Part shown: positions 2,954 to 50,460 of the stretch, in pieces
Layout of the letters: every line of letters starts with the position of its first letter
Position numbering within the stretch: position 1 is the first letter of the stretch
Origin: Candidatus Limnocylindrales bacterium
Lineage (GTDB): Bacteria; Moduliflexota; Moduliflexia; Moduliflexales; JAUQPW01
Direction: 5' to 3'
NCBI GenBank assembly: GCA_035559535.1
Contig: DATMBG010000022.1
Span: 192,568-256,567, forward strand
Length of the DNA stretch: 64,000 bases
Made by a program: the position numbers and the translations under genes
The notes under the pieces: generated by a model
What the model was told of the DNA's origin: nothing
What the model saw: only the letters and a program-made list of their open reading frames with translations
The model's database searches: none

Positions 2954-2965
2954 AGGAATAAGCAG

Positions 2966-3138
2966 GAGAGTGTGGGAGTGTGGGAGTATGGAGGTATGGG
3001 AGTAGGGAAGTAGGGAAGTGTGGGAGTGTGGGAGTGTGGAAAGTAAAGTGTTCATACCTCCATACCCCCATACCCCCATACCTCCATACTCCCATACCCC
3101 CATACCTCCATACTCCCACACTCCCGTACTTTCATACC
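2966..3138. repeat. heptamer-repeat palindromic element, copy A1 (G-rich TGGGAGT-like arm / center / C-rich ACTCCCA-like arm)
   Basis: About 10 x 7-nt units RTGGGAG on one side, ~13 nt center, reverse-complement units on the other side. Forms a long imperfect hairpin. Lies between the two mutase subunit genes. Confidence 0.75.
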
Positions 3139-4908
3139 TTAAAAAACGGCGGGATCTTTGTAGTCTCCGTACAATTCTCGAAGTGTACCCATAATTTCCC
3201 CTTCTGTGGCATAAACCTTTACGGCCTCCAAAATCCGAGGCATGAGGTTTTCATTTTTCTCTACCGCCTCTCGTAGTCTATCCAGTGCCTTATCTACTTC
3301 TCTTTGATTTCGGGATTTTTTAACTTCTGCCAATCGTTCCTTTTGTCGGTCTTCTTCTGCCGGGTCGAATTCAAAGACCTCGATGGGTTGTTGAACTTCG
3401 GACTGATAGGCATTTACACCGACGACCAGATAATCCTTTTTTTCGATTTTTTGTTGATACTGATAGGCAGCTTCTGAGATTTCCTTTTCGATATATCCCT
3501 TCTCTATGGCTGTAAGCATCCCTTCGAGCATACTTCCCTTGCCGAGGGTCTCGATTTTTTCTATATACTCTTGGGCTTTTTCTTCCATGGTATTGGTTAG
3601 AGATTCTACGAAATAAGATCCGGCCAGTGGATCAATGGTATTGACGACCCCACTTTCATGTCCGATGATTTGCTGGGTGCGTAAGGATATCATCATGGCC
3701 TCTTCCGAAGGAATATCATAAGCTTCGTCGTATCCACTGACATGGAGAGATTGAGTTCCTCCCAGGACCGCGGCCAGTGCCTGAATGGTTCCCCGGATGA
3801 TGTTATTTTTAGGTTGTTCCCGAACCAGGGTAGAACCCAGGGTCTGGGTATGGAACCGAACCCGCATAGATTCGGCTTTTTTAGCCCCATATCGTTCTTT
3901 CATAATTCTGGCCCACAACCTTCTGGCAGCTCGAAACTTGCTGATCTCCTCAAAAAAATCATTGTGGCAACCGAAGAAGAAGGACAGCCGGGGTGCAAAA
4001 TCGTCTAGGGCGAGGCCGCGTTGAAGACCGCCTTCCACATAAGCCATCCCTTGGGCCAGGGTAAAAGCGAGTTCCTGTACGGCAGTAGACCCGGCCTCAC
4101 GGGTATGATAACCCGAGATGGAAATGGTATTCCAGTTGGGAACATAGCGGGTACAATACTCTACGACATCCAGGGTAATCTTAAAAGCCGGGCGGGGAGG
4201 AAGACCAAAGGTTTTCTGCCCATGGAATTCCTTTAACGAATCGTTCTGGACCGTTCCCCGCAAATCTTCCCATTTAACACCCCGTTTCTCGGCCACAGCC
4301 AATAAAAGACTCAACAACACAATTGCCGGATGGTTGATGGTTAAAGAAATACTCACCCGATCCAGCGGAATTCCTTCAAACAGCTCTTCCATATCCCGAA
4401 GGGTATCAATGGCAACTCCTAATCGTCCCACTTCTCCTTCTGCCAGAGGATGATCTGAATCATAACCTGTGAGAGTCGGATGATCAAAGTCCGTACTAAT
4501 ACCTGTTTGTCCATGCTTGAGAAGGAAGCGGTACCGTTCGTTGGTTGATCGGGCCGTTCCAAATCCGGCAATCTGCCGTCGGGTCCACAGCCGCCCCCGA
4601 TACATGGTGGGATATACCCCTCGGGTAAATGGAAAGGCACCGGGAAAGTTCAGATCCTTCAAATAATCCAGCTCCTTCACATCTTCAGGGGTGTAGACCC
4701 GCTTGACTTCCAGGTCAGAAACAGTTCGAAAGGTTTCACGCTGTTCAGGAGTCTTCTTAAGGACAGGAGCCAGGATCTCCGATTCCCATTTTTCTTGGGT
4801 TTCTTTGATCTGCTCCAGGGCTTTTTCATTAAAAAGTTTAGGGTCCATCTTTAAACCTCCGATTAACAAGGTATTTGGTTTTTTAAATTTCGGCCGTCTG
4901 TCCGCCAT
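3139..4908 (-). CDS. methylmalonyl-CoA mutase family large (catalytic) subunit, split type without B12 domain
   Basis: FTRGVYPTMYRGRLWTRRQIAGFG...TDFDHPTLTGYDSD signature of MCM/ICM catalytic barrel, 589 aa. Co-oriented and adjacent to the separate B12-binding subunit. Confidence 0.85.
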   Translation of the reverse strand: MADRRPKFKKPNTLLIGGLKMDPKLFNEKALEQIKETQEKWESEILAPVLKKTPEQRETFRTVSDLEVKRVYTPEDVKELDYLKDLNFPGAFPFTRGVYPTMYRGRLWTRRQIAGFGTARSTNERYRFLLKHGQTGISTDFDHPTLTGYDSDHPLAEGEVGRLGVAIDTLRDMEELFEGIPLDRVSISLTINHPAIVLLSLLLAVAEKRGVKWEDLRGTVQNDSLKEFHGQKTFGLPPRPAFKITLDVVEYCTRYVPNWNTISISGYHTREAGSTAVQELAFTLAQGMAYVEGGLQRGLALDDFAPRLSFFFGCHNDFFEEISKFRAARRLWARIMKERYGAKKAESMRVRFHTQTLGSTLVREQPKNNIIRGTIQALAAVLGGTQSLHVSGYDEAYDIPSEEAMMISLRTQQIIGHESGVVNTIDPLAGSYFVESLTNTMEEKAQEYIEKIETLGKGSMLEGMLTAIEKGYIEKEISEAAYQYQQKIEKKDYLVVGVNAYQSEVQQPIEVFEFDPAEEDRQKERLAEVKKSRNQREVDKALDRLREAVEKNENLMPRILEAVKVYATEGEIMGTLRELYGDYKDPAVF

Positions 4909-19357: not shown

Positions 19358-21862
19358 TTATTTTGCCGCAGATACCGGAAGATCTCCCAGCGAACCTACA
19401 GAAACTACAGGAAATACGCCCAAAAATTGAGAAGAAGAAGTAAGAATCCACCACTGCCCCGTAGAAGGTCGAAAGATTCCCAGATCGGTCCGTCCATCTC
19501 CATCATAATCTGCCTGAACCGGAAGATCTCCGGGTTGTCCCCATGCCCTTGTCACGATTCTCCTACTTCTAAGAATACCTATCCAGGTTCCTGTGCTGGG
19601 TCTCCAGACGGCTACATTGGCTAATCCATCTCCATCATAATCCCCAGGTACCGGAAAATCTCCCACAGTTCCTAAAACCCTAATGGTAAGCAGATTATTG
19701 CTAGAATTGGTAATAAACCACTGACCGGTGGAAGGTCTAAAAACAGCAATATCCGTCACACCATCTCCATCATAATCAGCCGGAACAGGGATGTCGCCGG
19801 GCATACCCCAAATTGTGGCTCCAAGGCCACCACTTGAGAAAAGGATCCACCATACACTGCCGAGGGGCCTCCAAACAGCACGATCCGTCAAGCCATCCCC
19901 ATCGTAATCTCCAGGAACCGGAAGATCTCCCGCCTGACCCCAGACCTGAATATCCTCACCGGCTGGAAGAAGAACATGCCACTCGCCGGTGGAAGGCCTA
20001 AAGAAGGCAAAATCGGCGGTTCCATCTCCATCGTAATCACCGGGAGTTGGAATATCTCCCGAAGATCCGAAGGAAACCTTTGAGGTCCTGCCGGATACCG
20101 ACCACTCTCCGGTTGTGGGATTCCAGACGGCAATATCATCATTCAACCCCCCATTGAAATTCGCCTTATCTGCCACAGGAACAGCCGGAATCAAAGGTAA
20201 GGTTTGTTGAATAACCCACACACTCCCGAGAGTTCCGGCATAGAGAATAGAAGGAGTTGTTGGATCTACTGCTAAAGCCTGGATACCCAGATTCGTCAAT
20301 CCTGTATTCATCACGCTCCAGTTTCCTCCTCCATCGAGGCTCTTGAACACACCCTCCAAGGTTCCCGCATAGAGAGTCACAGGGGTCACCGGATCGATAG
20401 CCAGGACTCGAACATCCAGATTCGTCAGTCCAGTACTGATACTGCTCCAACTGCCACCCCCATTGATGCTCTTGAAAATACCGTTACCGACGGTACCTGC
20501 ATACAGAGTTGCAGGGGTCGCCGGATCGATAGCCAAAGCCTGAATATTCAGATTCGTCAATCCCGTATTCATCACACTCCAGCTCCCACCCCCATTGATG
20601 CTCTTGAAAATACCGTTACCGGCAGTGCCCGCATACAGAATTGCAGGGGTCGTCGGATCGATAGCCAGAGCCTGAATATTCAGATTCGTCAGCCCGGTAT
20701 TTATTGCCCTCCAGCTTCCCCCCCCATCGGTACTCTTGAAGATCCCCCCACCTGAAGTCCCCGCATAGACCGTGGAAGGAGTCCCAGGATCGATAACAAG
20801 ATCCCGAATATTGAAGGCCGTCAGTATATCAAAGGCCGTCAGTCCGGTATTTATTGCCTTCCAGCTTCCCCCCCCATCGGTACTCTTGAAGATGCCTCCC
20901 GAAGTTCCTGCATAGACCGTGGAGGGATTTGTAGGATCGATAGCCAGATCCCGAATATTGAAGGCCGTCAGTTTGTTATTTACAGGGTTCCAGTTTACCC
21001 CCCCATCGGTACTCTTGAATACCCCACCATCGATAGTCCCTGCATACACCGTGGAAGGGGTTATGGGATCGATGACCAGAGTAAGAACACTCAGATTGGT
21101 CAATCCGGTATTCGCCACACTCCAGCTCCCCCCGCCATTGGTACTCTTGAAGATACCTCCTCCCAAAGTCCCTGCATACAGGATAGAAGAAGTTTTAGGA
21201 TCCACGGCCAGGATATAAACATCCAGGTTGGTCAGTCCAGTATTTACCGTATTCCAGTTTCCTCCTCCATCGGTACTCTTGAATACCCCACCTGAAGTCC
21301 CTGCATAGAGAATGGAGGAAGTTACAGGATCAACGGCCAGGGCTCGAACCTCCAGATTCGTCAACCCCGTATTTGCCACACTCCAGTTTCCTCCTTCATC
21401 GGTACTCTTGAATACCCCACCTGAAGTCCCTGCATAGAGAACGGAGGGAGTCGAGGGATCAACGGCCAGGGCTCGAACTTCCAGATTCGTCAACCCCGTA
21501 TTTGCCACACTCCAGTTTCCTCCTCCATCGGTACTCTTGAATACCCCACCTCCAAAAGTCCCTGCATAGAGAACGGAGGGGGTCGAGGGATCAACGGCCA
21601 GGGCTTTTATGTTTCCACCTTTCGGTCCATTGGTCGTCCATAGGTTAAACCCGGCAAAAGCCCTGTCTACCCCTAGAGAAAATAGAGTCAATAGAATTCC
21701 CACAAAGAGTATCTGGAGGCGGAGATATAAGGATAAAGTTTTTATCCCTGATTTACAAAAACTATAACGAAAGTCGGAAAGTAAATATTTTTTATCTTGC
21801 TTCTCACTGTTATTGCGTAACAGAGAAAGCAGGTTTTTTATAGATTCCCTTGGAGTTTCCAT
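19358..21862 (-). CDS. large membrane-anchored repeat protein: N-terminal TM, about 12 BNR/Asp-box-like repeats (YAGTxGGGVFKSTDGGGNW), C-terminal FG-GAP/VCBS-like repeats (GDYDGDGxTDxAVWRPSTGxW)
   Basis: Repeat consensus read directly from the translation. 834 aa. Confidence 0.8.
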   Translation of the reverse strand: METPRESIKNLLSLLRNNSEKQDKKYLLSDFRYSFCKSGIKTLSLYLRLQILFVGILLTLFSLGVDRAFAGFNLWTTNGPKGGNIKALAVDPSTPSVLYAGTFGGGVFKSTDGGGNWSVANTGLTNLEVRALAVDPSTPSVLYAGTSGGVFKSTDEGGNWSVANTGLTNLEVRALAVDPVTSSILYAGTSGGVFKSTDGGGNWNTVNTGLTNLDVYILAVDPKTSSILYAGTLGGGIFKSTNGGGSWSVANTGLTNLSVLTLVIDPITPSTVYAGTIDGGVFKSTDGGVNWNPVNNKLTAFNIRDLAIDPTNPSTVYAGTSGGIFKSTDGGGSWKAINTGLTAFDILTAFNIRDLVIDPGTPSTVYAGTSGGGIFKSTDGGGSWRAINTGLTNLNIQALAIDPTTPAILYAGTAGNGIFKSINGGGSWSVMNTGLTNLNIQALAIDPATPATLYAGTVGNGIFKSINGGGSWSSISTGLTNLDVRVLAIDPVTPVTLYAGTLEGVFKSLDGGGNWSVMNTGLTNLGIQALAVDPTTPSILYAGTLGSVWVIQQTLPLIPAVPVADKANFNGGLNDDIAVWNPTTGEWSVSGRTSKVSFGSSGDIPTPGDYDGDGTADFAFFRPSTGEWHVLLPAGEDIQVWGQAGDLPVPGDYDGDGLTDRAVWRPLGSVWWILFSSGGLGATIWGMPGDIPVPADYDGDGVTDIAVFRPSTGQWFITNSSNNLLTIRVLGTVGDFPVPGDYDGDGLANVAVWRPSTGTWIGILRSRRIVTRAWGQPGDLPVQADYDGDGRTDLGIFRPSTGQWWILTSSSQFLGVFPVVSVGSLGDLPVSAAK

Positions 21863-22523: not shown

Positions 22524-22967
22524 CTATATTCCCAAAACCATGACGGATATGGTTCTCTCCCTGGCCCGGTCCAATTCTATAAAAAAAATCCGTTGCCAGG
22601 GACCCAATTGAATCTGTCCGTTCACAAGGTTCAGGGTCTCTGAAGCTCGCAGGAGCATGGCTTTACAATGGGAGTGACCATTATCATATTCCTCAGGACC
22701 CATGTTGACCGTTCGGATGGAAAAGTCGTTATGCCGATACACGGCGTCCTGGGGAACTATATTCTCCAGAATCTTTTTCATATCCTCCAGGAGTAAAGGT
22801 TCGTTTTCATTGATCACAATGGCCGTGGTGGTATGTTTGGTTTGTACGTTGACAAAGCCATTTTGAATTTGAGATTTTTCCACCAGCTCGATGATGATGT
22901 CTGTGAGATCTACAAATTGTAAACATTCTTGAGTTTTTAATGGGATTAACTCATGAAAAACTCTCAT
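22524..22967 (-). CDS. YjbQ/UPF0047 family protein (secondary thiamine-phosphate synthase-like)
   Basis: Family-typical GxVNVQTKHTTTAIVINENE and HNDFSIRT, HSHCKAML motifs. 147 aa. Confidence 0.85.
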   Translation of the reverse strand: MRVFHELIPLKTQECLQFVDLTDIIIELVEKSQIQNGFVNVQTKHTTTAIVINENEPLLLEDMKKILENIVPQDAVYRHNDFSIRTVNMGPEEYDNGHSHCKAMLLRASETLNLVNGQIQLGPWQRIFFIELDRARERTISVMVLGI

Positions 22968-23128
22968 AGCTCCCTATTCCCTTTCCTTTCCAGAAGTTCT
23001 TTTAAACCTGGAAGCTTATTCTTTTGAAGGATAAAGTACTTTGTTTAGTAAAGCAATCGGGTGAAAAAATAAACAAAATATGTAATTTATTTGCTTGCCG
23101 GGGGATAAGCTGCAAGGTCTGAACGGTG

Positions 23129-23509
23129 CTAGGCACGGACCGGTTTTACCCAGGATAAAATCCGGGGTGGGTCTTTTTCGGCAATTATGGCAGATTCTGC
23201 AGCCTTTCGCAGGACTTGTTCCAGGGCTTGCAGATATTCGATAAAGCTCTCACGACCCTGATCAGTAAGAAATACCGTAGTACGAGGTTTGGCTCTGACA
23301 AAGGTCTTTTCAATCTTGATGGCACCGGCTTCTTCTAAGGCTTTCAAATGCCGACTCAGGTTGCCGTCGGTAAGTTTACATTCCTCCTTGAGCTCGTTAA
23401 AAGTCAACCCATCTATGGAACCACAAAGGGCTGATACAATGGCTAAACGATTCGGCTCGTGAAAAATTTGTTTTAAGGCTACATAAGGATTATCGTACTT
23501 GGCGGACAT
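23129..23509 (-). CDS. winged-helix transcriptional regulator (ArsR/MarR-like)
   Basis: LTFNELKEECKLTDGNLSRHLKALEEAGAI helix-turn-helix plus wing. Overlaps the upstream membrane-protein gene by 20 nt. Confidence 0.7.
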   Translation of the reverse strand: MSAKYDNPYVALKQIFHEPNRLAIVSALCGSIDGLTFNELKEECKLTDGNLSRHLKALEEAGAIKIEKTFVRAKPRTTVFLTDQGRESFIEYLQALEQVLRKAAESAIIAEKDPPRILSWVKPVRA

Positions 23510-24143
23510 GGTTGTTCTCCTTTATTTTAAAGAAACTACTTAAGGAAGTGGGGGTTGCCCCATCGTAATGCAAAATGATTCCCCCGGCCCATTCCCCGAC
23601 AAAAAAGACCATGGCTGCCGGCCATGGATTTAAAAAAGAATTATGGGGAGTCAGCAGATAAATAGTGCCACAGATAATGTAAAACCAACCCACCTGACAA
23701 ATCTGTTTCGGCAGAACATGGCGTGAGGCCAGGTTGGCCAATCCAAACAAACACATCCATACGCCAAATAAGTATTTATGGAGCCCATCCCTCATTAAGA
23801 TTAAGGTTAGGACTCCTCCCACAAAAAGAGGGGGGAGTACATCAATGGTCGGTTTAAGCCGGCGGATATCCCGCTTCACACAGGGATCAAAAAAGAACCA
23901 GTAAACCAGGGATCCAAAATTTAAAAGAATGGCAAGGACAAAGACAGTTCCCCAGCCAACGGCATGGGCGGTGATGGTTTTCGGAAAATAGTCGGAAGAC
24001 ATAACCGGAGCAGCCAGTAAAGCAAGGGTCCCAGAAATGGCTCGGGCACGCCCCGAATAGCCTTTAAAACGTTGTTTTTCCAATACCTTCTGTTGTAATT
24101 CCTGAACCTGGGCAAGTGCATGGTGAATAGGATTGGTCATCAT
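23490..24143 (-). CDS. polytopic membrane protein of unknown function (co-transcribed with the wHTH regulator)
   Basis: Five to six hydrophobic segments. Start placed at the ATG preceded by GGAGGAAGAAACC, where the longer ORF would begin at 24167. Confidence 0.6.
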   Translation of the reverse strand: MMTNPIHHALAQVQELQQKVLEKQRFKGYSGRARAISGTLALLAAPVMSSDYFPKTITAHAVGWGTVFVLAILLNFGSLVYWFFFDPCVKRDIRRLKPTIDVLPPLFVGGVLTLILMRDGLHKYLFGVWMCLFGLANLASRHVLPKQICQVGWFYIICGTIYLLTPHNSFLNPWPAAMVFFVGEWAGGIILHYDGATPTSLSSFFKIKENNHVRQVR

Positions 24144-24184
24144 GGTTTCTTCCTCCTTTTCTAACAAAATATACTTGACAAATT

Positions 24185-24315: not shown

Positions 24316-27069
24316 ATGATCCCATGGACCCAATCCGCAAAGGAAGAATTAGATCGTTATTCCGACCAAATTCGGCGTACGGTGGAATCATCGGGAGCCG
24401 ATCCTTCGATATTTATCACAGACATTTATCGGTACGTTGATGAAGCTATTGCTGCTTCTCACCTTCAGGTGGTAACGGAGGAGGATATCCGGCGAATCTT
24501 ATCCCAGATAGGCTTGCCTGGCTCCGATTCCATGGGATGGAAGAGAGATTTTGAACCTGAAATTCCTGTTCAAACAAATCCTTTCCATTCTGGGACAGAT
24601 CCTGGGACAGAAGTACCGAAGAGTCCAGGGATAAAGTCTTTACAAAGGTCGGATTTTAACCGGATTTACAAGAGGCCATCCGGTCTGTTTATTCTTTTGT
24701 TTGGTGTTGTACTTCCTCTGATAACTCTTGGGGTTGAATTAAGCACCCATCTATGTGCCAACGAATTTTTCGATCCGATTCCGACGACCTGGCATATTCT
24801 TTTGGTCGGGTTTGTGCCCCTTGCGAATCTTTTAGTTTGGCTGGCCGTCTGGAAGGGTAAAACCTCCTATCGACGGAAATTGGGATTAATCAATGGAATT
24901 GCACTGGGTGTGGCATTTTTTTACACACTCCCCTTTATTCCTCTCCTTCCCCTGAGTGTTTTTGCAATTATTTATTTTGGTATAGGATTGTTACCCATGG
25001 CGCCTCTTTTCTCTTTCATTTCAGCCGTCCTTTGTCGCCGTTACCTTCGACAGATGACCCTCGAGGCAACGCCCAGGAAGGTCCCAGGTCTTGGATGGGG
25101 GATTCTTTTAGCTCTCGTAGCTTTTGTGGCCGCCGATTTGCCAATTGTTCTCACCCGAATCGGTATACAGATGGCTGCTTCCCCTTCTTCCGAGATCAGC
25201 CTTCGAGGGATTCGATGGCTCCGGGCCATAGGGGATAAAGACCTTCTACTACAGGCCTGTTATCGGCGCCCTGCAAGGATATCGGATTTCTTCAGTTTTA
25301 TGGTTTCCATGGGAAATCTTCCTACCCCCGAAGAAGTCCGCAAGATTTACTACCGTGTTATGGGGAAGCCCTTTAACGCAGTTCCTCCACCAAAACTTGT
25401 TACCTTTGATCGTTGGAGTTTCTGGGACGAGCTTGATTTTGACCGGGATCAGGGTGGGGCTGTGGTGGGAGAACGGATAAAAGGACTTTCCCTGGTCGGC
25501 TCTCGACTGGATGGATCTTTGGATCCTGATGCCGTTTTGGTTTATACCGAATGGATCCTTATTCTCAAGAACAATTCCAATCGGCAACATGAAGCAAGAG
25601 CTCAAATCGCTCTCCCTCCAGGGGGAGTAGTTTCACGCGTAACGCTCTGGATCAACGGAGAGGAGCAAGAAGCCGCCTTTGGATCGCGAGGGAAGGTGCG
25701 GCAGACCTATGAACAGATCGTTCGACAACGGCGAGATCCTGTTCTCGTTACCACCAGCGGCCCTGATCGTGTCTTAGTCCAGTGTTTTCCTGTACCTCCA
25801 GGCGGAGAGATGAAAGTTCGAATTGGGATTACCGCACCACTTTTGTTGGAAACCAGGGACCGGGGGCTTTTTCGTTTACCTTACTTTTTGGAACGTAACT
25901 TTAGTATCTATGAAGAAGGTTCCCATTCTGTCTGGTTTGAATCGAGAAAGCCCATGGAAACCCTCAGCAAAACTCTTAAATTAGAACATTCCGACAACAA
26001 CCTCTATACCATCCGAGGAACCATGTCGGATCCCGATCTGACAACATCCCAGGCTATTATCCATGTGGGTCGGTCTGGAGAGGTCGTGCAGGCCTGGACC
26101 CCAGATCCTGTAAGCAAAAAGGAACAGATCATTCGTCAGATCATCCAAGAGAGGGAACCTCAGTCTCCGGCCCGGGTTATCCTTGTCGTTGATGGCTCTC
26201 AAGGTATGCAAGGGTTTCTTCCAGAAGTTATCGATGCCCTCTCCGGGCTCCCGGAAGGCATCGAATTGGGTTTGATCTTTGCCTCAGATGACGTTCGTCT
26301 CCTGGCAGGGTCGATACAAAAAGTTACAGCCGAATGGTATAGAACTCTTGCCGATCACCTGAAGAAAGAGAATTTTGAAGGAGGCCAGGATAACATCCCG
26401 GCCCTGATCAAGGGTTGGGACCTTGCAACGGAGCATCCAGATGGTATCATCCTGTGGATTCATGGACCCCAACCCATTCTTTTGCAAACAACAGAAGAAA
26501 TTCGGCAGAGATGGGAAAGACGACCTGACTCCCCTCATCTTTATGAGATCCAGGCCGGAGGTGGACCCAACCGTATCGTTGAGCAACTCGATGGGATCCC
26601 AGCCATAAAATCCATTCCACACCTGGGAAGTTTATCCGATGATTTGAAAAGACTGTTCTCCCCATGGCGTGGTGAGTCAAAAGAATGGGTGTTATTCCGT
26701 GAAAGAGTTACCCGAGAAAGCCTGGACGATTCGATCCCGGGTAAAGAGACCTCTGCCCATCTGGCTCGACTTTGGGCGAAGGATGAAATTCTGAAACGTG
26801 TTGTTTTCAAAGGGAGACCTGAATCTTCGAGTCCGAACCTGATAGAGGAAGCTCTTCAGCTTGCAATCAGCTATCAACTGGTAACTCCCCTTAGTGGAGC
26901 GGTTGTTCTGGAAACCCAGCAGCAATACCAACAAATGAATCTTGAGCCGGTCAAACCGGGTACAGTTCCAACCATCCCTGAACCGGAGACCTGGATGCTC
27001 CTGCTGGTGGTTGCTACGGTCCTGATAGGGGTCTTTTACCGATGGAAGATCTTGCCCGTTAGAGAATAG
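24316..27069 (+). CDS. PEP-CTERM-anchored protein with N-terminal polytopic membrane domain, VIT (vault protein inter-alpha-trypsin) domain and VWA domain; XrtN-system-like exosortase target
   Basis: C-terminus IPEPETWMLLLVVATVLIGVFYRWK is PEP followed by a TM helix and basic tail. A VIT-like block lies around AQIALPPGGVVSRVTLWINGEE...VQCFPVPPGGEMKVRIG. A VWA-like block lies around RVILVVDGSQGM. About six TM helices sit in residues ~120-290. Confidence 0.8.
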   Translation: MIPWTQSAKEELDRYSDQIRRTVESSGADPSIFITDIYRYVDEAIAASHLQVVTEEDIRRILSQIGLPGSDSMGWKRDFEPEIPVQTNPFHSGTDPGTEVPKSPGIKSLQRSDFNRIYKRPSGLFILLFGVVLPLITLGVELSTHLCANEFFDPIPTTWHILLVGFVPLANLLVWLAVWKGKTSYRRKLGLINGIALGVAFFYTLPFIPLLPLSVFAIIYFGIGLLPMAPLFSFISAVLCRRYLRQMTLEATPRKVPGLGWGILLALVAFVAADLPIVLTRIGIQMAASPSSEISLRGIRWLRAIGDKDLLLQACYRRPARISDFFSFMVSMGNLPTPEEVRKIYYRVMGKPFNAVPPPKLVTFDRWSFWDELDFDRDQGGAVVGERIKGLSLVGSRLDGSLDPDAVLVYTEWILILKNNSNRQHEARAQIALPPGGVVSRVTLWINGEEQEAAFGSRGKVRQTYEQIVRQRRDPVLVTTSGPDRVLVQCFPVPPGGEMKVRIGITAPLLLETRDRGLFRLPYFLERNFSIYEEGSHSVWFESRKPMETLSKTLKLEHSDNNLYTIRGTMSDPDLTTSQAIIHVGRSGEVVQAWTPDPVSKKEQIIRQIIQEREPQSPARVILVVDGSQGMQGFLPEVIDALSGLPEGIELGLIFASDDVRLLAGSIQKVTAEWYRTLADHLKKENFEGGQDNIPALIKGWDLATEHPDGIILWIHGPQPILLQTTEEIRQRWERRPDSPHLYEIQAGGGPNRIVEQLDGIPAIKSIPHLGSLSDDLKRLFSPWRGESKEWVLFRERVTRESLDDSIPGKETSAHLARLWAKDEILKRVVFKGRPESSSPNLIEEALQLAISYQLVTPLSGAVVLETQQQYQQMNLEPVKPGTVPTIPEPETWMLLLVVATVLIGVFYRWKILPVRE

Positions 27070-27180
27070 TAGAAGGGTGGGGGTGTGGGAGGGTGGGGGT
27101 AGATGTAAATTCTCCCATACTTTTACGCTCCTTTCTACCCTTCCATACTCCCATACTCCCACACCCTCATACTTCCCTCT
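27070..27180. repeat. heptamer-repeat palindromic element, copy A2
   Basis: gggtgggggtgtgggagggtggggg / center agatgtaaatt / ctcccatac...ccatactcccatactcccacaccctcatac. Sits in the 112-nt gap between the PEP-CTERM gene and the exosortase gene. Confidence 0.7.
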
Positions 27181-27181
27181 G

Positions 27182-27991
27182 ATGAACAACCAGAGTTTCC
27201 TTTTTATTCTCCAGTTTCTTGCCTTTTGGCCGGTTTGGAAATGGTATGTTCTCAGGCTGATAGATTCTCCCCAGGAACTATTTGGCTTAATCGCTTTAGG
27301 TACCGCGGGAGGATTTATTTTATGGAGAAGGCCTGATTTAAGTTCCGCCAAATCCCGTCTGATTTTGCCGGCCGTTTTTGTGCTTCTCTATACGGTGACT
27401 TACCCTTTTCTTCCATTCCTGATAAAGGCTGCTATTGCGCTCGTTGCCATAGGTTGTACCCTAAGTTCCTATCGATGGGGGATATCTTTTCATCCTGGAA
27501 TCTGCGGGCTTCTCCTCCTATCCCTCCCCGTTATCCCCTCTCTACAATTCTACCTGGGATATCCACTCCGTGTGTTAACAGGTATCCTAGCGGTTCCTCT
27601 CCTTCAATTGGGAGGTTTTACCGTAGTTCGAGAAGGAACTTCCTTAAATTGGGATGGTCAACTCATCTTAATTGATGCACCTTGTAGTGGGGTTCGGATG
27701 TTATGGTCGGCCCTTTATCTCACTTTTACCTTGACCTGTTTCTACGGATTTAATACAGGAAAAACCTGTCTGGCCGTTCTTCTCTCATTCCTGGGGATTA
27801 TTGCAGGAAATGCGCTCCGTTCGGCTGCCTTATTCTATCCTGAGGCCCATACCCTTGCTCTCCCCTCCTGGACCCACGAAGGGATTGGGATGGTCGTATT
27901 TTTCTTCACAGCCATTTTTATTGTGGGAGGTATTCGGTGGATTCGAAAAAAATTTCCATTGGTCAAGCGGGTGGTCAAGCGGGACGCTTAA
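27182..27991 (+). CDS. exosortase (small EpsH/Xrt family, XrtN-like)
   Basis: Eight TM helices. Conserved LIDAPCSGVRMLW with the catalytic Cys, and a conserved Arg in AGNALRSAAL. Start trimmed to ATG 27182 because the upstream ORF extension is repeat sequence. Confidence 0.85.
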   Translation: MNNQSFLFILQFLAFWPVWKWYVLRLIDSPQELFGLIALGTAGGFILWRRPDLSSAKSRLILPAVFVLLYTVTYPFLPFLIKAAIALVAIGCTLSSYRWGISFHPGICGLLLLSLPVIPSLQFYLGYPLRVLTGILAVPLLQLGGFTVVREGTSLNWDGQLILIDAPCSGVRMLWSALYLTFTLTCFYGFNTGKTCLAVLLSFLGIIAGNALRSAALFYPEAHTLALPSWTHEGIGMVVFFFTAIFIVGGIRWIRKKFPLVKRVVKRDA

Positions 27992-28509
27992 CCTACCTGA
28001 CCCTTCCCATTTATATCATTTCCTGTGGGTTAGCCACCATAGTACCCCTGGTAGTTGCTACTCCTGATTTCAAGCCCAATTTTGTCTCGTTCCCCGGCTG
28101 GCCAAATCAATTTGAAGACCGCCCTTTGATGGAGTTACCTTTATCCAAACGTGAGAGGCGCTTTAACAATGATTTTCCAGGGCGTATCGCAAGGTTCACA
28201 GATGGAACCCGTGAGTTTGTGATCCGATGGGTGATCCAAGAAACGAGAAAACTCCATCCCGGTGCCGATTGTTTCAAAGGAATCGGCTATTTTATTCAAC
28301 CTATCTCCCTCCGAATCGATATCAACGGCTACTCCTGGGGTTGTTTTGAAGCTACACGGGGTGAGGAAAGACTCAGAGTCTGCGAAAGGATCTACGATGA
28401 AGCAGGAAATAGTTGGACTGATGTGTCTGACTGGTATTGGGCAGCTCTTCTAGGAAGAACGCAAGGACCCTGGTGGGTCATCACCGTTGCCGAGAATCTA
28501 CAGGAATAA
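27937..28509 (+). CDS. exosortase-associated EpsI-like protein (N-terminal TM anchor plus periplasmic domain); assignment tentative
   Basis: 190-aa ORF overlapping the exosortase 3' end by 55 nt, with a single N-terminal hydrophobic helix. Position and size match EpsI-type partners. Confidence 0.4.
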   Translation: MDSKKISIGQAGGQAGRLTYLTLPIYIISCGLATIVPLVVATPDFKPNFVSFPGWPNQFEDRPLMELPLSKRERRFNNDFPGRIARFTDGTREFVIRWVIQETRKLHPGADCFKGIGYFIQPISLRIDINGYSWGCFEATRGEERLRVCERIYDEAGNSWTDVSDWYWAALLGRTQGPWWVITVAENLQE

Positions 28510-40124: not shown

Positions 40125-40250
40125 TGGCCCTCACCCCCAGCTCCCTCCCTCTCCTCCCTCCCCGTCCACGGGGAGGGAGGGGGTGGGAGTGGAGAGGGGA
40201 GTTGGGGAGTGAAAGCAGCCCTATGAGCCAAAATTAGGTAAACAGTTTAC
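40125..40250. repeat. GC-rich palindromic repeat element, family B copy 2 (hairpin plus conserved ggggagtgaaagcaRccctatgagNcaaaattaRgtaaacagt module)
   Basis: ctccctccccgtccacggggagggag hairpin. The 3' module is near-identical to the one at 53100-53150. Confidence 0.65.
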
Positions 40251-42574: not shown

Positions 42575-42688
42575 ACACCCTCCTTATAGTTGCAAAAACA
42601 CCCCTTCAACCCTTTAAGTAAATTTCTAGTCGATATTTATAGTATACCTCTATTTAGACAAAATCCATAGAACTATTTTATTTAAAAG

Positions 42689-42818
42689 TATGGGAGTGTG
42701 GGAGTATGGGGGTAGGGAAGTGGGGAAGTATGGGGGTAGGGAAGTGGGAAAGATAGAACTCCCATACTCCTACACTCCCACACTCCCATACTCCCATACT
42801 CCCACACTTCCACACTCT
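42689..42818. repeat. heptamer-repeat palindromic element, copy A3
   Basis: tatgggagtgtgggagtatgggggtagggaag... / center agatagaa / ctcccatactcctacactcccacactcccatactcccatactcccac. In the divergent promoter region between gltA and the lipoprotein gene. Confidence 0.75.
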
Positions 42819-42841
42819 TACTTAGATTCTATTCGAAGGAC

Positions 42842-48499: not shown

Positions 48500-48610
48500 T
48501 GAGAGTACGGGAGTGGGGAGGTATGGGAGTGTGGGAGTTCTATCTTCCCCACTTCCATACCCCCATACTTCCCCACTCCCATCCTTCCATACTTCCATAC
48601 TAAAAGTATA
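48500..48610. repeat. heptamer-repeat palindromic element, copy A4
   Basis: gtgagagtacgggagtggggaggtatgggagtgtgggag / center ttctatctt / ccccacttccatacccccatacttccccactcccatccttccatacttccatac. Confidence 0.7.
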
Positions 48611-50339: not shown

Positions 50340-50460
50340 TCAAACCCCCAAGGATCCCTTTTGAGACCCGGAGACCCGGAGAAATTTCTCCGCGTCCCCA
50401 TGTCTCCGCGTCTCCGTGTCCCCATGTCTCCGCGTCTCAAAAGGGGTCCTTGGGTCTTCC
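50340..50460. repeat. tandem direct repeats of a ~16-nt unit TCTCCGCGTCYCCRTG (about 3 copies), preceded by an inverted GAGACCCGGAGAAATTTCTCCGCG palindrome
   Basis: Read directly: ccggagacccggagaaatttctccgcgtccccatgtctccgcgtctccgtgtccccatgtctccgcgtctc. Located in a divergent promoter region. Confidence 0.6.

Follow-up and report, generated by a model that had tools for sequence, protein, structure and literature searches.

A probable dedicated exosortase cassette with a doubly membrane-attached VIT-domain target and an uncharacterized partner domain

Exosortases are very common in environmental bacteria, and the cuts, sites and attachments ascribed to them are largely inferred. Here we analyze a 64,000-nt stretch of DNA (the window) from a metagenome-assembled genome (MAG) of Candidatus Limnocylindrales bacterium (assembly GCA_035559535.1, contig DATMBG010000022.1, positions 192,568 to 256,567 of the forward strand). 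Within it, three consecutive open reading frames (ORFs) at 24316-28509 encode a VIT-domain protein with a PEP-CTERM-like C-terminal tail, an exosortase, and a small protein with a single transmembrane (TM) helix. The question raised by this locus is whether the three genes form a dedicated system, in which one enzyme serves one substrate, and to which of the known exosortase systems they belong. An initial annotation, made from the letters alone, had read them as an XrtN-type pairing with an EpsI-like partner. We propose, with a probability of roughly 80%, that the locus encodes a dedicated one-enzyme, one-substrate exosortase system and that it represents a widespread family without a curated model name.

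A conserved three-gene cassette

The three ORFs lie on the + strand at the coordinates first assigned to them. The target gene (24316-27069) encodes 917 residues ending in ...VPTIPEPETWMLLLVVATVLIGVFYRWKILPVRE and is followed by a 112-nt spacer (27070-27181) that holds an octamer-array hairpin. The exosortase gene (27182-27991) starts at ATG and contains LILIDAPCSGVRMLW, with the DAPCSG cysteine at residue 168; the cysteine motif is thus as originally described, and the length is 269 aa instead of 270. This start is backed by an identical 269-aa NCBI protein (P0001) and by the N-termini of homologues, which favor it over a GTG start that would give 304 aa; the latter was rejected, as it would run through the repeat element in the spacer. 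Gene 3 (27937-28509), which encodes the partner, starts at GTG with GGGAGG 6-7 nt upstream. Its 190-aa, single-TM product had been placed across the 3' end of the exosortase gene, and the two ORFs do overlap, by 55 nt.

To what extent does this arrangement recur? Using an alignment of exosortase relatives only as query, we fetched 80 loci of 406 confirmed matches. Target, exosortase and gene 3 succeed one another on one strand, as they do in the window, in 72 of the 80, at 35-60% identity. These loci are spread over about 10 phyla, including Acidobacteriota, Planctomycetota, Desulfobacterota, Bacillota/Heliobacteriaceae, Gammaproteobacteria and Verrucomicrobiota, with Melainabacteria, Kiritimatiellae and Riflebacteria among the further lineages. 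The eight exceptions are mostly contig ends, and one is a deletion. No conserved fourth gene accompanies the cassette in the fetched loci. The three-gene arrangement is far beyond chance, and the family is large, with more than 1,400 exosortase relatives and about 1,700 target relatives; the latter (1694) are named 'VIT domain-containing protein' or hypothetical.

The deletion affects the closest relative of the window, locus L040 (MAG JZ-2.bins.100), which has about 88% nucleotide identity and the same flanking genes. A single 2.9-kb deletion at L040 9950-10020 corresponds to window 24383-27280 and joins target codon ~23 to exosortase codon ~34, so that the target and the first ~33 exosortase codons were lost together; the rest of the exosortase ORF and the gene 3 ORF appear broken up. 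The L040 assembly has 1.5x coverage, and its frameshifts could be errors; the deletion itself is unlikely to be one.

Target-like matches 4-6 kb upstream in Acidobacteria were considered as a second target and rejected, as they are an unrelated VIT protein of ~740 aa on the opposite strand that carries no PEP-CTERM tail. A protein of this kind lies 3-6 kb upstream on the - strand of four Pyrinomonadaceae loci (L031 2237-4453, L045 2265-4493, L046 1750-4017 and L064 2249-4477) and shares ~20% identity over the VIT part only. We also note the taxonomic labels of the hosts. The source MAG is labelled 'Candidatus Limnocylindrales' (Chloroflexota) by NCBI, and several other MAGs that carry the cassette have Bacillota or Heliobacteriaceae as their label; L025, L028, L036, L041 and L056 are among the label cases considered.

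Substrate, enzyme and partner

The target combines, in order, a HAAS-like cytoplasmic domain, a disordered linker, a bundle of five TM helices, a periplasmic ectodomain of VIT and vWA-like domains, and the PEP-CTERM signal. Its full-length AlphaFold model (pLDDT 85.9) places a three-helix domain at aa 1-65, the disordered linker at aa 71-118 and the five TM helices at ~aa 120-285. Juxtamembrane helices, a beta-sandwich region with the VIT domain, an alpha/beta domain at ~aa 620-800, a helical region and a terminal helix (aa 892-912) follow. The single ORF and the full-length model indicate that the TM region belongs to this protein, as the initial annotation had assumed, and not to a separate upstream gene.

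Hydropathy, the AlphaFold helices and the positive-inside rule agree on five TM helices (24673-25170, aa 120-285), in place of the approximately six first counted. The loop at 181-189 has 4 lysine and arginine residues and that at ~240-258 has 5, against 0 in each of those at 145-157 and 213-221. Because the basic residues concentrate in the former pair, the bundle is predicted to run N-in/C-out, and this orientation would put the ectodomain outside the cytoplasmic membrane and the terminal RWK inside it, as a PEP-CTERM signal requires. The TM block had been thought unusual for such a target. It is present in every orthologue, however, and aligns to positions 87-194 of TIGR04477, the XrtN-target model, and to positions 206-316 of TIGR04286, the MSEP-CTERM model. 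Polytopic PEP-CTERM proteins have been on record since 2006 (PMC1569441), and membrane attachment at both ends is a trait of the family, not an oddity of the window copy.

Of the two ectodomain blocks proposed at the outset, the VIT domain is recovered by profile and the vWA domain by fold. Pfam, TIGR04477 and the modeled beta strands place the VIT beta-sandwich at 25486-25905 (~aa 391-530); PF08487 scores 43.3 bits over aa 411-503 against a cutoff of 26.5, and positions 335-449 of TIGR04477 give 85 bits over the same region. The vWA-like alpha/beta domain (26173-26715, ~aa 620-800) is placed by fold matches and profile alignment. With Foldseek, the best PDB match of the ectodomain is ITIH1 (6FPY; E 1.4e-20, ~600 columns), and 4fx5, TRAP and collagen VI vWA domains match as well. 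The family profile matches ITIH4 (9C4F) weakly (E 5e-7) in the VIT, vWA and post-vWA blocks, setting its own 'VvlvvDgSrsM' opposite 'VVFVIDKSGSM' of ITIH4. Pfam VWA models gave no match to the target, either at E<=0.01 for the whole protein or at E<=1 for aa 530-917. The metal-binding MIDAS motif, canonically DxSxS...T...D, is non-canonical here: it reads D626-G-S628-Q-G630, then GGQDN at 689-693 without the Thr, and WIH716G with His for Asp. D626, G689, G690 and H716 are nevertheless invariant across 60 sequences. Judged from the modeled fold, the assignment of a vWA domain is correct at that level.

The sorting signal, read from the sequence at 26965-27069 (aa 884-917 plus stop), consists of VPTIPEPE, a TM helix and a basic cluster, in full VPTIPEPE-TWMLLLVVATVLIGVFY-RWK. 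It is the sole PEP-CTERM-like tail in the 64-kb window. Of the 74 targets with an exosortase next door, 60 share VPTIPEPE letter for letter, again ahead of a TM helix and basic cluster, and 117 of 120 relatives end in a PEP motif, TM helix and basic cluster. The tail of one relative (P0342) passes the Pfam PEP-CTERM model PF07589 with 21.9 bits, and two others (P0250 and P0358) have a precomputed PF07589 match. By comparison, four relatives with a long N-terminal region that lack an adjacent exosortase carry the relaxed motifs VPAVPEPS, VPTVPEPR, VPMVPEPQ and VPVIPEPG, a difference consistent with the strict VPTIPEPE co-evolving with a dedicated enzyme.

The enzyme itself is a clear member of the exosortases. 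It scores 82.4 bits to PF09721 (Exosortase_EpsH; cutoff 25.7) and passes TIGR04178 (43.6 against 23 bits), and its hydropathy profile has several hydrophobic spans. C168 (codon 27683-27685), R213 and H232 are invariant in 68 orthologues and are predicted to be catalytic; a Cys/Arg/His triad is the proposed catalytic set of exosortases and archaeosortases (Haft preprint 10.1101/2023.06.07.544157).

Gene 3 encodes one N-terminal TM helix (aa 22-39) and a compact periplasmic alpha/beta domain (AlphaFold pLDDT 89.7). No Pfam family matches the window protein or its 46 orthologues, and searches of the PDB returned neither a significant fold match nor a sequence relative. Among NCBIfam models, 46 of 46 orthologues match XrtT (NF033770) over its C-terminal region only (best E 8e-14), and fused members of the family align with XrtT and XrtO over both domains. 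An exhaustive profile search found the gene 3 domain in 974 cluster representatives at 50% identity; in about half of the best 150 of these 974, it forms the C-terminal part of a fusion protein of exosortase size (440-520 aa). In the fetched loci, exosortase and gene 3 are fused to one ORF in 11, and the two ORFs overlap in 59 of the 67 unfused loci. By sequence comparison, gene 3 is a homologue of the C-terminal domain found in fused exosortases of the XrtT/XrtO type.

The likeness of gene 3 to EpsI, proposed initially, did not extend to detectable homology. The EpsI model TIGR02914 matches 0 of 46 orthologues at E<=0.1, and the EpsI Pfam models (PF11984) match 0 of 46 at E<=10. The partner thus resembles EpsI in position and in its tendency to fuse, with no sequence homology to EpsI detectable by these models. 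A search for annotated exosortase/EpsI loci on plasmids found none.

Two further proteins place the gene 3 domain in other settings. In the fusion protein P0415 (452 aa) it occupies aa 3-162, with a GGDEF diguanylate cyclase domain at aa 286-449; there the fold seems to serve again as an extracytoplasmic sensor module, which hints at a ligand- or partner-binding role for the domain. P0396, from a Riflebacteria MAG, is encoded by one 937-aa ORF that the contig start truncates (L047 1-2814), in which a VWA region (249 bits to TIGR03788) precedes an exosortase (aa 494-736) and a gene 3 domain (aa 766-933). Either substrate, enzyme and partner are fused into one chain here, or a stop codon has been lost.

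Mechanism and alternative readings

We regard the cassette as dedicated because its gene order is conserved, its sorting motif is constant, its enzyme and partner occur as fusions, its target and exosortase were lost together in L040, and the window holds a single tail of this kind. It is also a dedicated one-to-one system by the definition of Haft, for whom enzyme and target in consecutive genes mark such a system. The core of the initial proposal is retained here: a dedicated exosortase that has a single PEP-CTERM target, of the VIT-domain type, and a single-TM partner translated together with it.

By analogy with archaeosortases and sortases, the exosortase, in complex with the partner domain, would recognize VPTIPEPE at the outer face of the membrane. 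The C-terminal helix would then be cut off through a thioacyl intermediate on Cys168, and this acyl-enzyme could either be hydrolyzed or hand the new C-terminus on to an acceptor. Such processing would not release the target, since the five-TM anchor is kept. One end of the ectodomain would instead be freed or re-attached, so that the outcome might be maturation or tethering and not export or release. In members that bear the HAAS-like domain, the processed state could further be relayed to a winged helix-turn-helix (wHTH) regulator, which is a speculative step.

Several considerations weigh against this proposal. Cleavage is inferred here, and exosortases are without a solved structure and have a sparse published biochemistry. 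The tail of the window protein, called textbook at first, shows its motif, TM helix and RWK plainly in the sequence but scores 16.3 bits to PF07589 (E 0.01), under the cutoff of 20.7. The count of a single tail covers the 64-kb window, and other exosortases and PEP-CTERM proteins may be encoded elsewhere in the genome. Should the Chloroflexota label hold, the host is one that may be without an outer membrane, unlike the classical PEP-CTERM setting; if this and the other labels are right, this exosortase system operates in hosts that possibly lack one, which would suit a target that is retained in the cytoplasmic membrane. Finally, the description of the enzyme as an unnamed sister of XrtQ stands on curated cutoffs alone.

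Of the alternatives, the one that survives best extends the proposal of a dedicated system. It holds that the cassette is mainly a transmembrane signalling device, its target being a HAAS-type receptor that controls a wHTH factor and the exosortase cut the activating or maturing step. Its starting point is the N-terminus of the target (24316-24525, aa 1-70), where AlphaFold and a comparison of N-termini outline a HAAS-like, three-helix cytoplasmic domain (helices 6-26, 30-47 and 55-65; pLDDT 83-97 per 10-residue block) that ends in the GxP motif G66-L-P68. G66 is invariant and P68 at least 90% conserved in the N-terminal alignment. The HAAS model PF22564 matches 13 of 20 homologous N-termini (best E 9.8e-7), and that of P0342 passes the cutoff (32.8 against 27 bits). 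The window N-terminus itself has no HAAS match at E<=1, which counts against the idea; it is 29-50% identical to the other N-termini, most of which do match. Long forms of this kind, the window protein included, have ~120-150 residues before the first conserved TM motif and make up about a third of the top target relatives. The short form, with ~41 residues there and no HAAS domain, accounts for the other two thirds.

Gene neighborhoods lend this alternative further support. In seven independent long-form loci, the gene immediately 5' of the target, and on the target's strand, encodes PadR: L006 (Planctomycetota), L084 (Elusimicrobia), L086 (Phycisphaerae) and those of P0274, P0330, P0346 and P0265. 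The PadR proteins of these loci are 58-78% identical across phyla. In the passages drawn on here from Ravi et al. 2024 (PMC11237479), HAAS is a three-helix, GxP-kinked domain found N-terminal to multi-TM sensors and always beside a stand-alone PadR-like wHTH, and the HAAS-PadR dyad is proposed as an alternative to two-component signalling. A HAAS domain fused to a VIT-vWA-PEP-CTERM protein is not among the architectures given in those passages. The joining of the partner domain to a GGDEF cyclase in P0415 also fits a signalling role.

Four of the seven PadR loci have no adjacent exosortase. PadR accompanies a HAAS-VIT-vWA-PEP-CTERM protein, with neither exosortase nor gene 3, at the P0274 locus, L088 3660-6664, L089 2160-5164 and L090 3658-6640; with their relaxed motifs, these four look as if they were served by a general exosortase encoded elsewhere.

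In the window, no PadR gene lies next to the target. The nearest regulator belongs to a divergent module on the - strand (23129-24167, placed by Pfam), in which a 225-aa membrane protein (23490-24167) is followed by a wHTH protein (23129-23509). The latter is of the HTH_34/ArsR type (HTH_34, 83.9 bits), matches PadR weakly (E 0.004) and is one gene removed from the target, hence two genes away. Comparable modules of a ~200-225-aa membrane protein and an HTH_34 wHTH occur at window 22524-24167 (-), L041 3995-5864, L065 5699-6728 and L075 3222-4203. The last three, labelled Heliobacteriaceae, Bryobacterales and Verrucomicrobiota, have the module 1-3 kb upstream of the cassette, and a YjbQ gene stands beside it in the window and in L041. 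Module and cassette may thus be in loose functional association, and we tentatively consider the window wHTH module a candidate regulator of the cassette.

The HAAS-like domain suggests that, in the clade of the window protein, the target reports its state to a wHTH transcription factor. Because most family members have no HAAS domain, signalling cannot be the core function of the family, and HAAS-PadR signalling is itself a prediction. We hold the signalling alternative to be rather unlikely. A fuller version, a processing-gated receptor, would have a doubly anchored, ITIH-like ectodomain cut at VPTIPEPE by exosortase and partner and perhaps linked covalently to an envelope polymer, comparable to the glycan ester of ITIH heavy chains, its state being relayed through the five TM helices to the HAAS domain so as to control a PadR/wHTH factor. 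In this complete form the idea is rather improbable. If it were true, this would be the first case of signalling output from an exosortase substrate, and the HAAS-PadR dyad would gain its first assigned sensory input.

The dedicated system that we favor also has to be placed among the named subfamilies. Against XrtQ (NF012182), the best-matching one, the exosortase scores 176-177 bits with a cutoff of 270, covering positions 10-246 of 256. XrtQ is the top match for 68 of 68 orthologues, and the best of them reaches ~200 bits (E 8.8e-60), so that none attains 270. Against XrtN (TIGR04476), the enzyme scores 30.1-30.9 bits with a cutoff of 200, and the best E among the 68 orthologues is 5e-18. 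For the target, the best NCBIfam model is TIGR04477 ('XrtN system VIT domain-containing protein'), at 139.4 bits with a cutoff of 250; 0 of 41 orthologues pass, the best at ~163 bits (E 8.3e-48). The two are colinear, aa 152-261, 404-513 and 810-909 of the target aligning to positions 87-194, 335-449 and 716-819 of the 822 in the model. Because no orthologue passes any specific cutoff, we treat the family as having no curated name, its enzyme apparently nearest to XrtQ and its substrate nearest to the XrtN target.

A reader might instead hold that the 270-bit cutoff is conservative and that this group is what 'exosortase Q' denotes. The unanimous top match, the near-full coverage of the model and the similar length all favor such a view. 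Against it, the best of the 68 orthologues falls 70 bits short, and NCBI applies generic names to the family ('exosortase/archaeosortase family protein', 'VIT domain-containing protein', 'hypothetical protein'). None of the listed exosortase matches is named XrtQ, and a literature search found no paper on XrtQ or XrtN. On balance we judge a divergent XrtQ to be unlikely.

Less probable by far is that the genes lie side by side without encoding an enzyme and its substrate, the C-terminal helix being merely a sixth anchor and the exosortase serving other PEP-CTERM proteins encoded elsewhere. That the cut is a prediction, and that the tail scores under the PF07589 cutoff, leaves some room for this. 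Synteny over about 10 phyla speaks against it, as do the joint loss of target and exosortase in L040 and an 8-residue motif that is nearly invariant at the presumed cut site and relaxed where no exosortase is adjacent. The XrtN-type assignment first proposed, for which the colinearity of the target with TIGR04477 over TM block, VIT domain and C-terminus is the argument, is refuted by these profile scores and has the least chance of all, given the failure of enzyme, target and every orthologue at the XrtN cutoffs, the far better match of all 68 orthologues to XrtQ (9e-60 against 5e-18), and an XrtN model 406 positions long where the cassette has a 269-aa enzyme and a separate partner gene.

Neighboring features and comparison with known systems

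The spacer between target and exosortase contains an inverted repeat of 30 nt with 80% complementarity, whose arms are (GGGTGGGG/GGGAGTGT)n at 27072-27101 and (ACTCCCAT)n at 27146-27175. As RNA it is predicted to fold at -54.1 kcal/mol (z -4.7). We considered and rejected an intrinsic terminator at this hairpin, no T-tract site being reported there. The initial annotation had noted a hairpin element in the 112-nt spacer, which is present; its units are octamers and not heptamers, and it is not unusual, being one of at least four dispersed, intergenic copies in the window (2960-3145, 27070-27180, 42680-42825 and 48500-48605). Each copy consists of tandem octamers (GGGAGTRT)n, a short loop and (AYACTCCC)n, with folding energies of -51 to -121 kcal/mol, and in all four the G-rich arm comes first on the + strand regardless of the orientation of the flanking genes. 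At other loci a few to several tens of nt separate the end of the target ORF from the exosortase match, or the two overlap. The spacer element arose by insertion of a dispersed repeat and does not belong to the conserved cassette. It might nevertheless modulate the relative expression of target and exosortase.

Further intergenic hairpins, perhaps related classes of the same phenomenon, lie at 40135-40200 and 50355-50445: a near-perfect 30-bp stem of C/T-rich and G/A-rich arms (-57 kcal/mol), and GAGACCCG/TCTCCGCG octamers (-42 kcal/mol). The DUF58 gene beside the cassette, noted initially as convergent and immediately downstream, is adjacent in L040 only and in 0 of the other 79 loci; its adjacency is coincidental. 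Elsewhere in the window, 19358-21862 (-) encodes an 834-aa protein with BNR/Sortilin-Vps10-type repeats and C-terminal FG-GAP repeats, the DNA of which contains a tandem array of ~130-nt units (20274-21604). With 200 bits against a cutoff of 175, the protein is a match to the F510_1955 glycosylhydrolase model.

How does the cassette compare with systems already described? With the XrtN system (TIGR04476/TIGR04477) it shares the pairing of an exosortase with a single VIT target, and the targets are colinearly homologous; it differs in its enzyme (30 against 200 bits), in a target that stays under the cutoff, and in having a 269-aa enzyme with a separate partner gene, the XrtN model being 406 positions long. 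XrtQ (NF012182) is the best subfamily and of similar size (~256-269 aa), yet cassette enzymes score at least 70 bits under its cutoff. The C-terminal domains of XrtT (NF033770) and XrtO (TIGR04489) are homologous to gene 3, with scores of at most 97 against 250 bits; those enzymes fuse both domains, whereas the window has separate, overlapping genes. The EpsH/EpsI arrangement is alike in its small downstream protein, which elsewhere is fused to the exosortase C-terminus (PMC1569441). That system (XrtA type, TIGR02914) differs in that no homology between EpsI and gene 3 is detected at the level of sequence, and in that the window cassette lies outside an EPS locus and appears one-to-one where EpsH/EpsI is one-to-many.

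Three other families combine TM helices and/or VIT-vWA domains with a C-terminal signal and a dedicated enzyme: MSEP-CTERM/XrtK (TIGR04286), TIGR02921 ('PEP_integral') and the marine proteobacterial sortase target TIGR03788. Target orthologues match these models weakly and far under their cutoffs (TIGR04286, 41 of 41; TIGR02921, 20 of 41; TIGR03788, 20 of 41), and all three families use other sorting signals and enzymes. ITIH1 and ITIH4 share with the target the VIT domain, the vWA domain and the post-vWA helical region. Unlike the target, with its MIDAS residues DGSQG, GGQDN and His716, the ITIH proteins, whose MIDAS is canonical, are soluble and secreted and have neither a TM bundle nor an exosortase. 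In ITIH precursors a C-terminal propeptide is split off, and the C-terminus so exposed forms an ester with a glycosaminoglycan. The removal of this propeptide is a suggestive parallel, by analogy, to removal of the sorting signal.

Likeness to the HAAS-PadR dyad lies in the three-helix GxP domain fused to multiple TM helices, and in the PadR gene upstream of seven long-form relatives; the window differs in having no adjacent PadR and an N-terminus under the Pfam HAAS threshold. The coupling of HAAS and PadR to the target in one clade links exosortase sorting and HAAS-PadR signalling, two processes each known from comparative genomics only. The partner domain represents an uncharacterized fold family without a Pfam model and may explain the C-terminal domains of XrtT and XrtO. 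Made up of a single substrate, a single small enzyme and a single accessory domain, the cassette is a good minimal test system: the motif of 8 residues is nearly invariant, and the substrate would stay membrane-anchored after cleavage, so that a product or adduct could be recovered. Set beside the known systems, what is new here is an uncurated family of a known kind, an uncharacterized accessory domain and a previously unremarked connection to HAAS/PadR.

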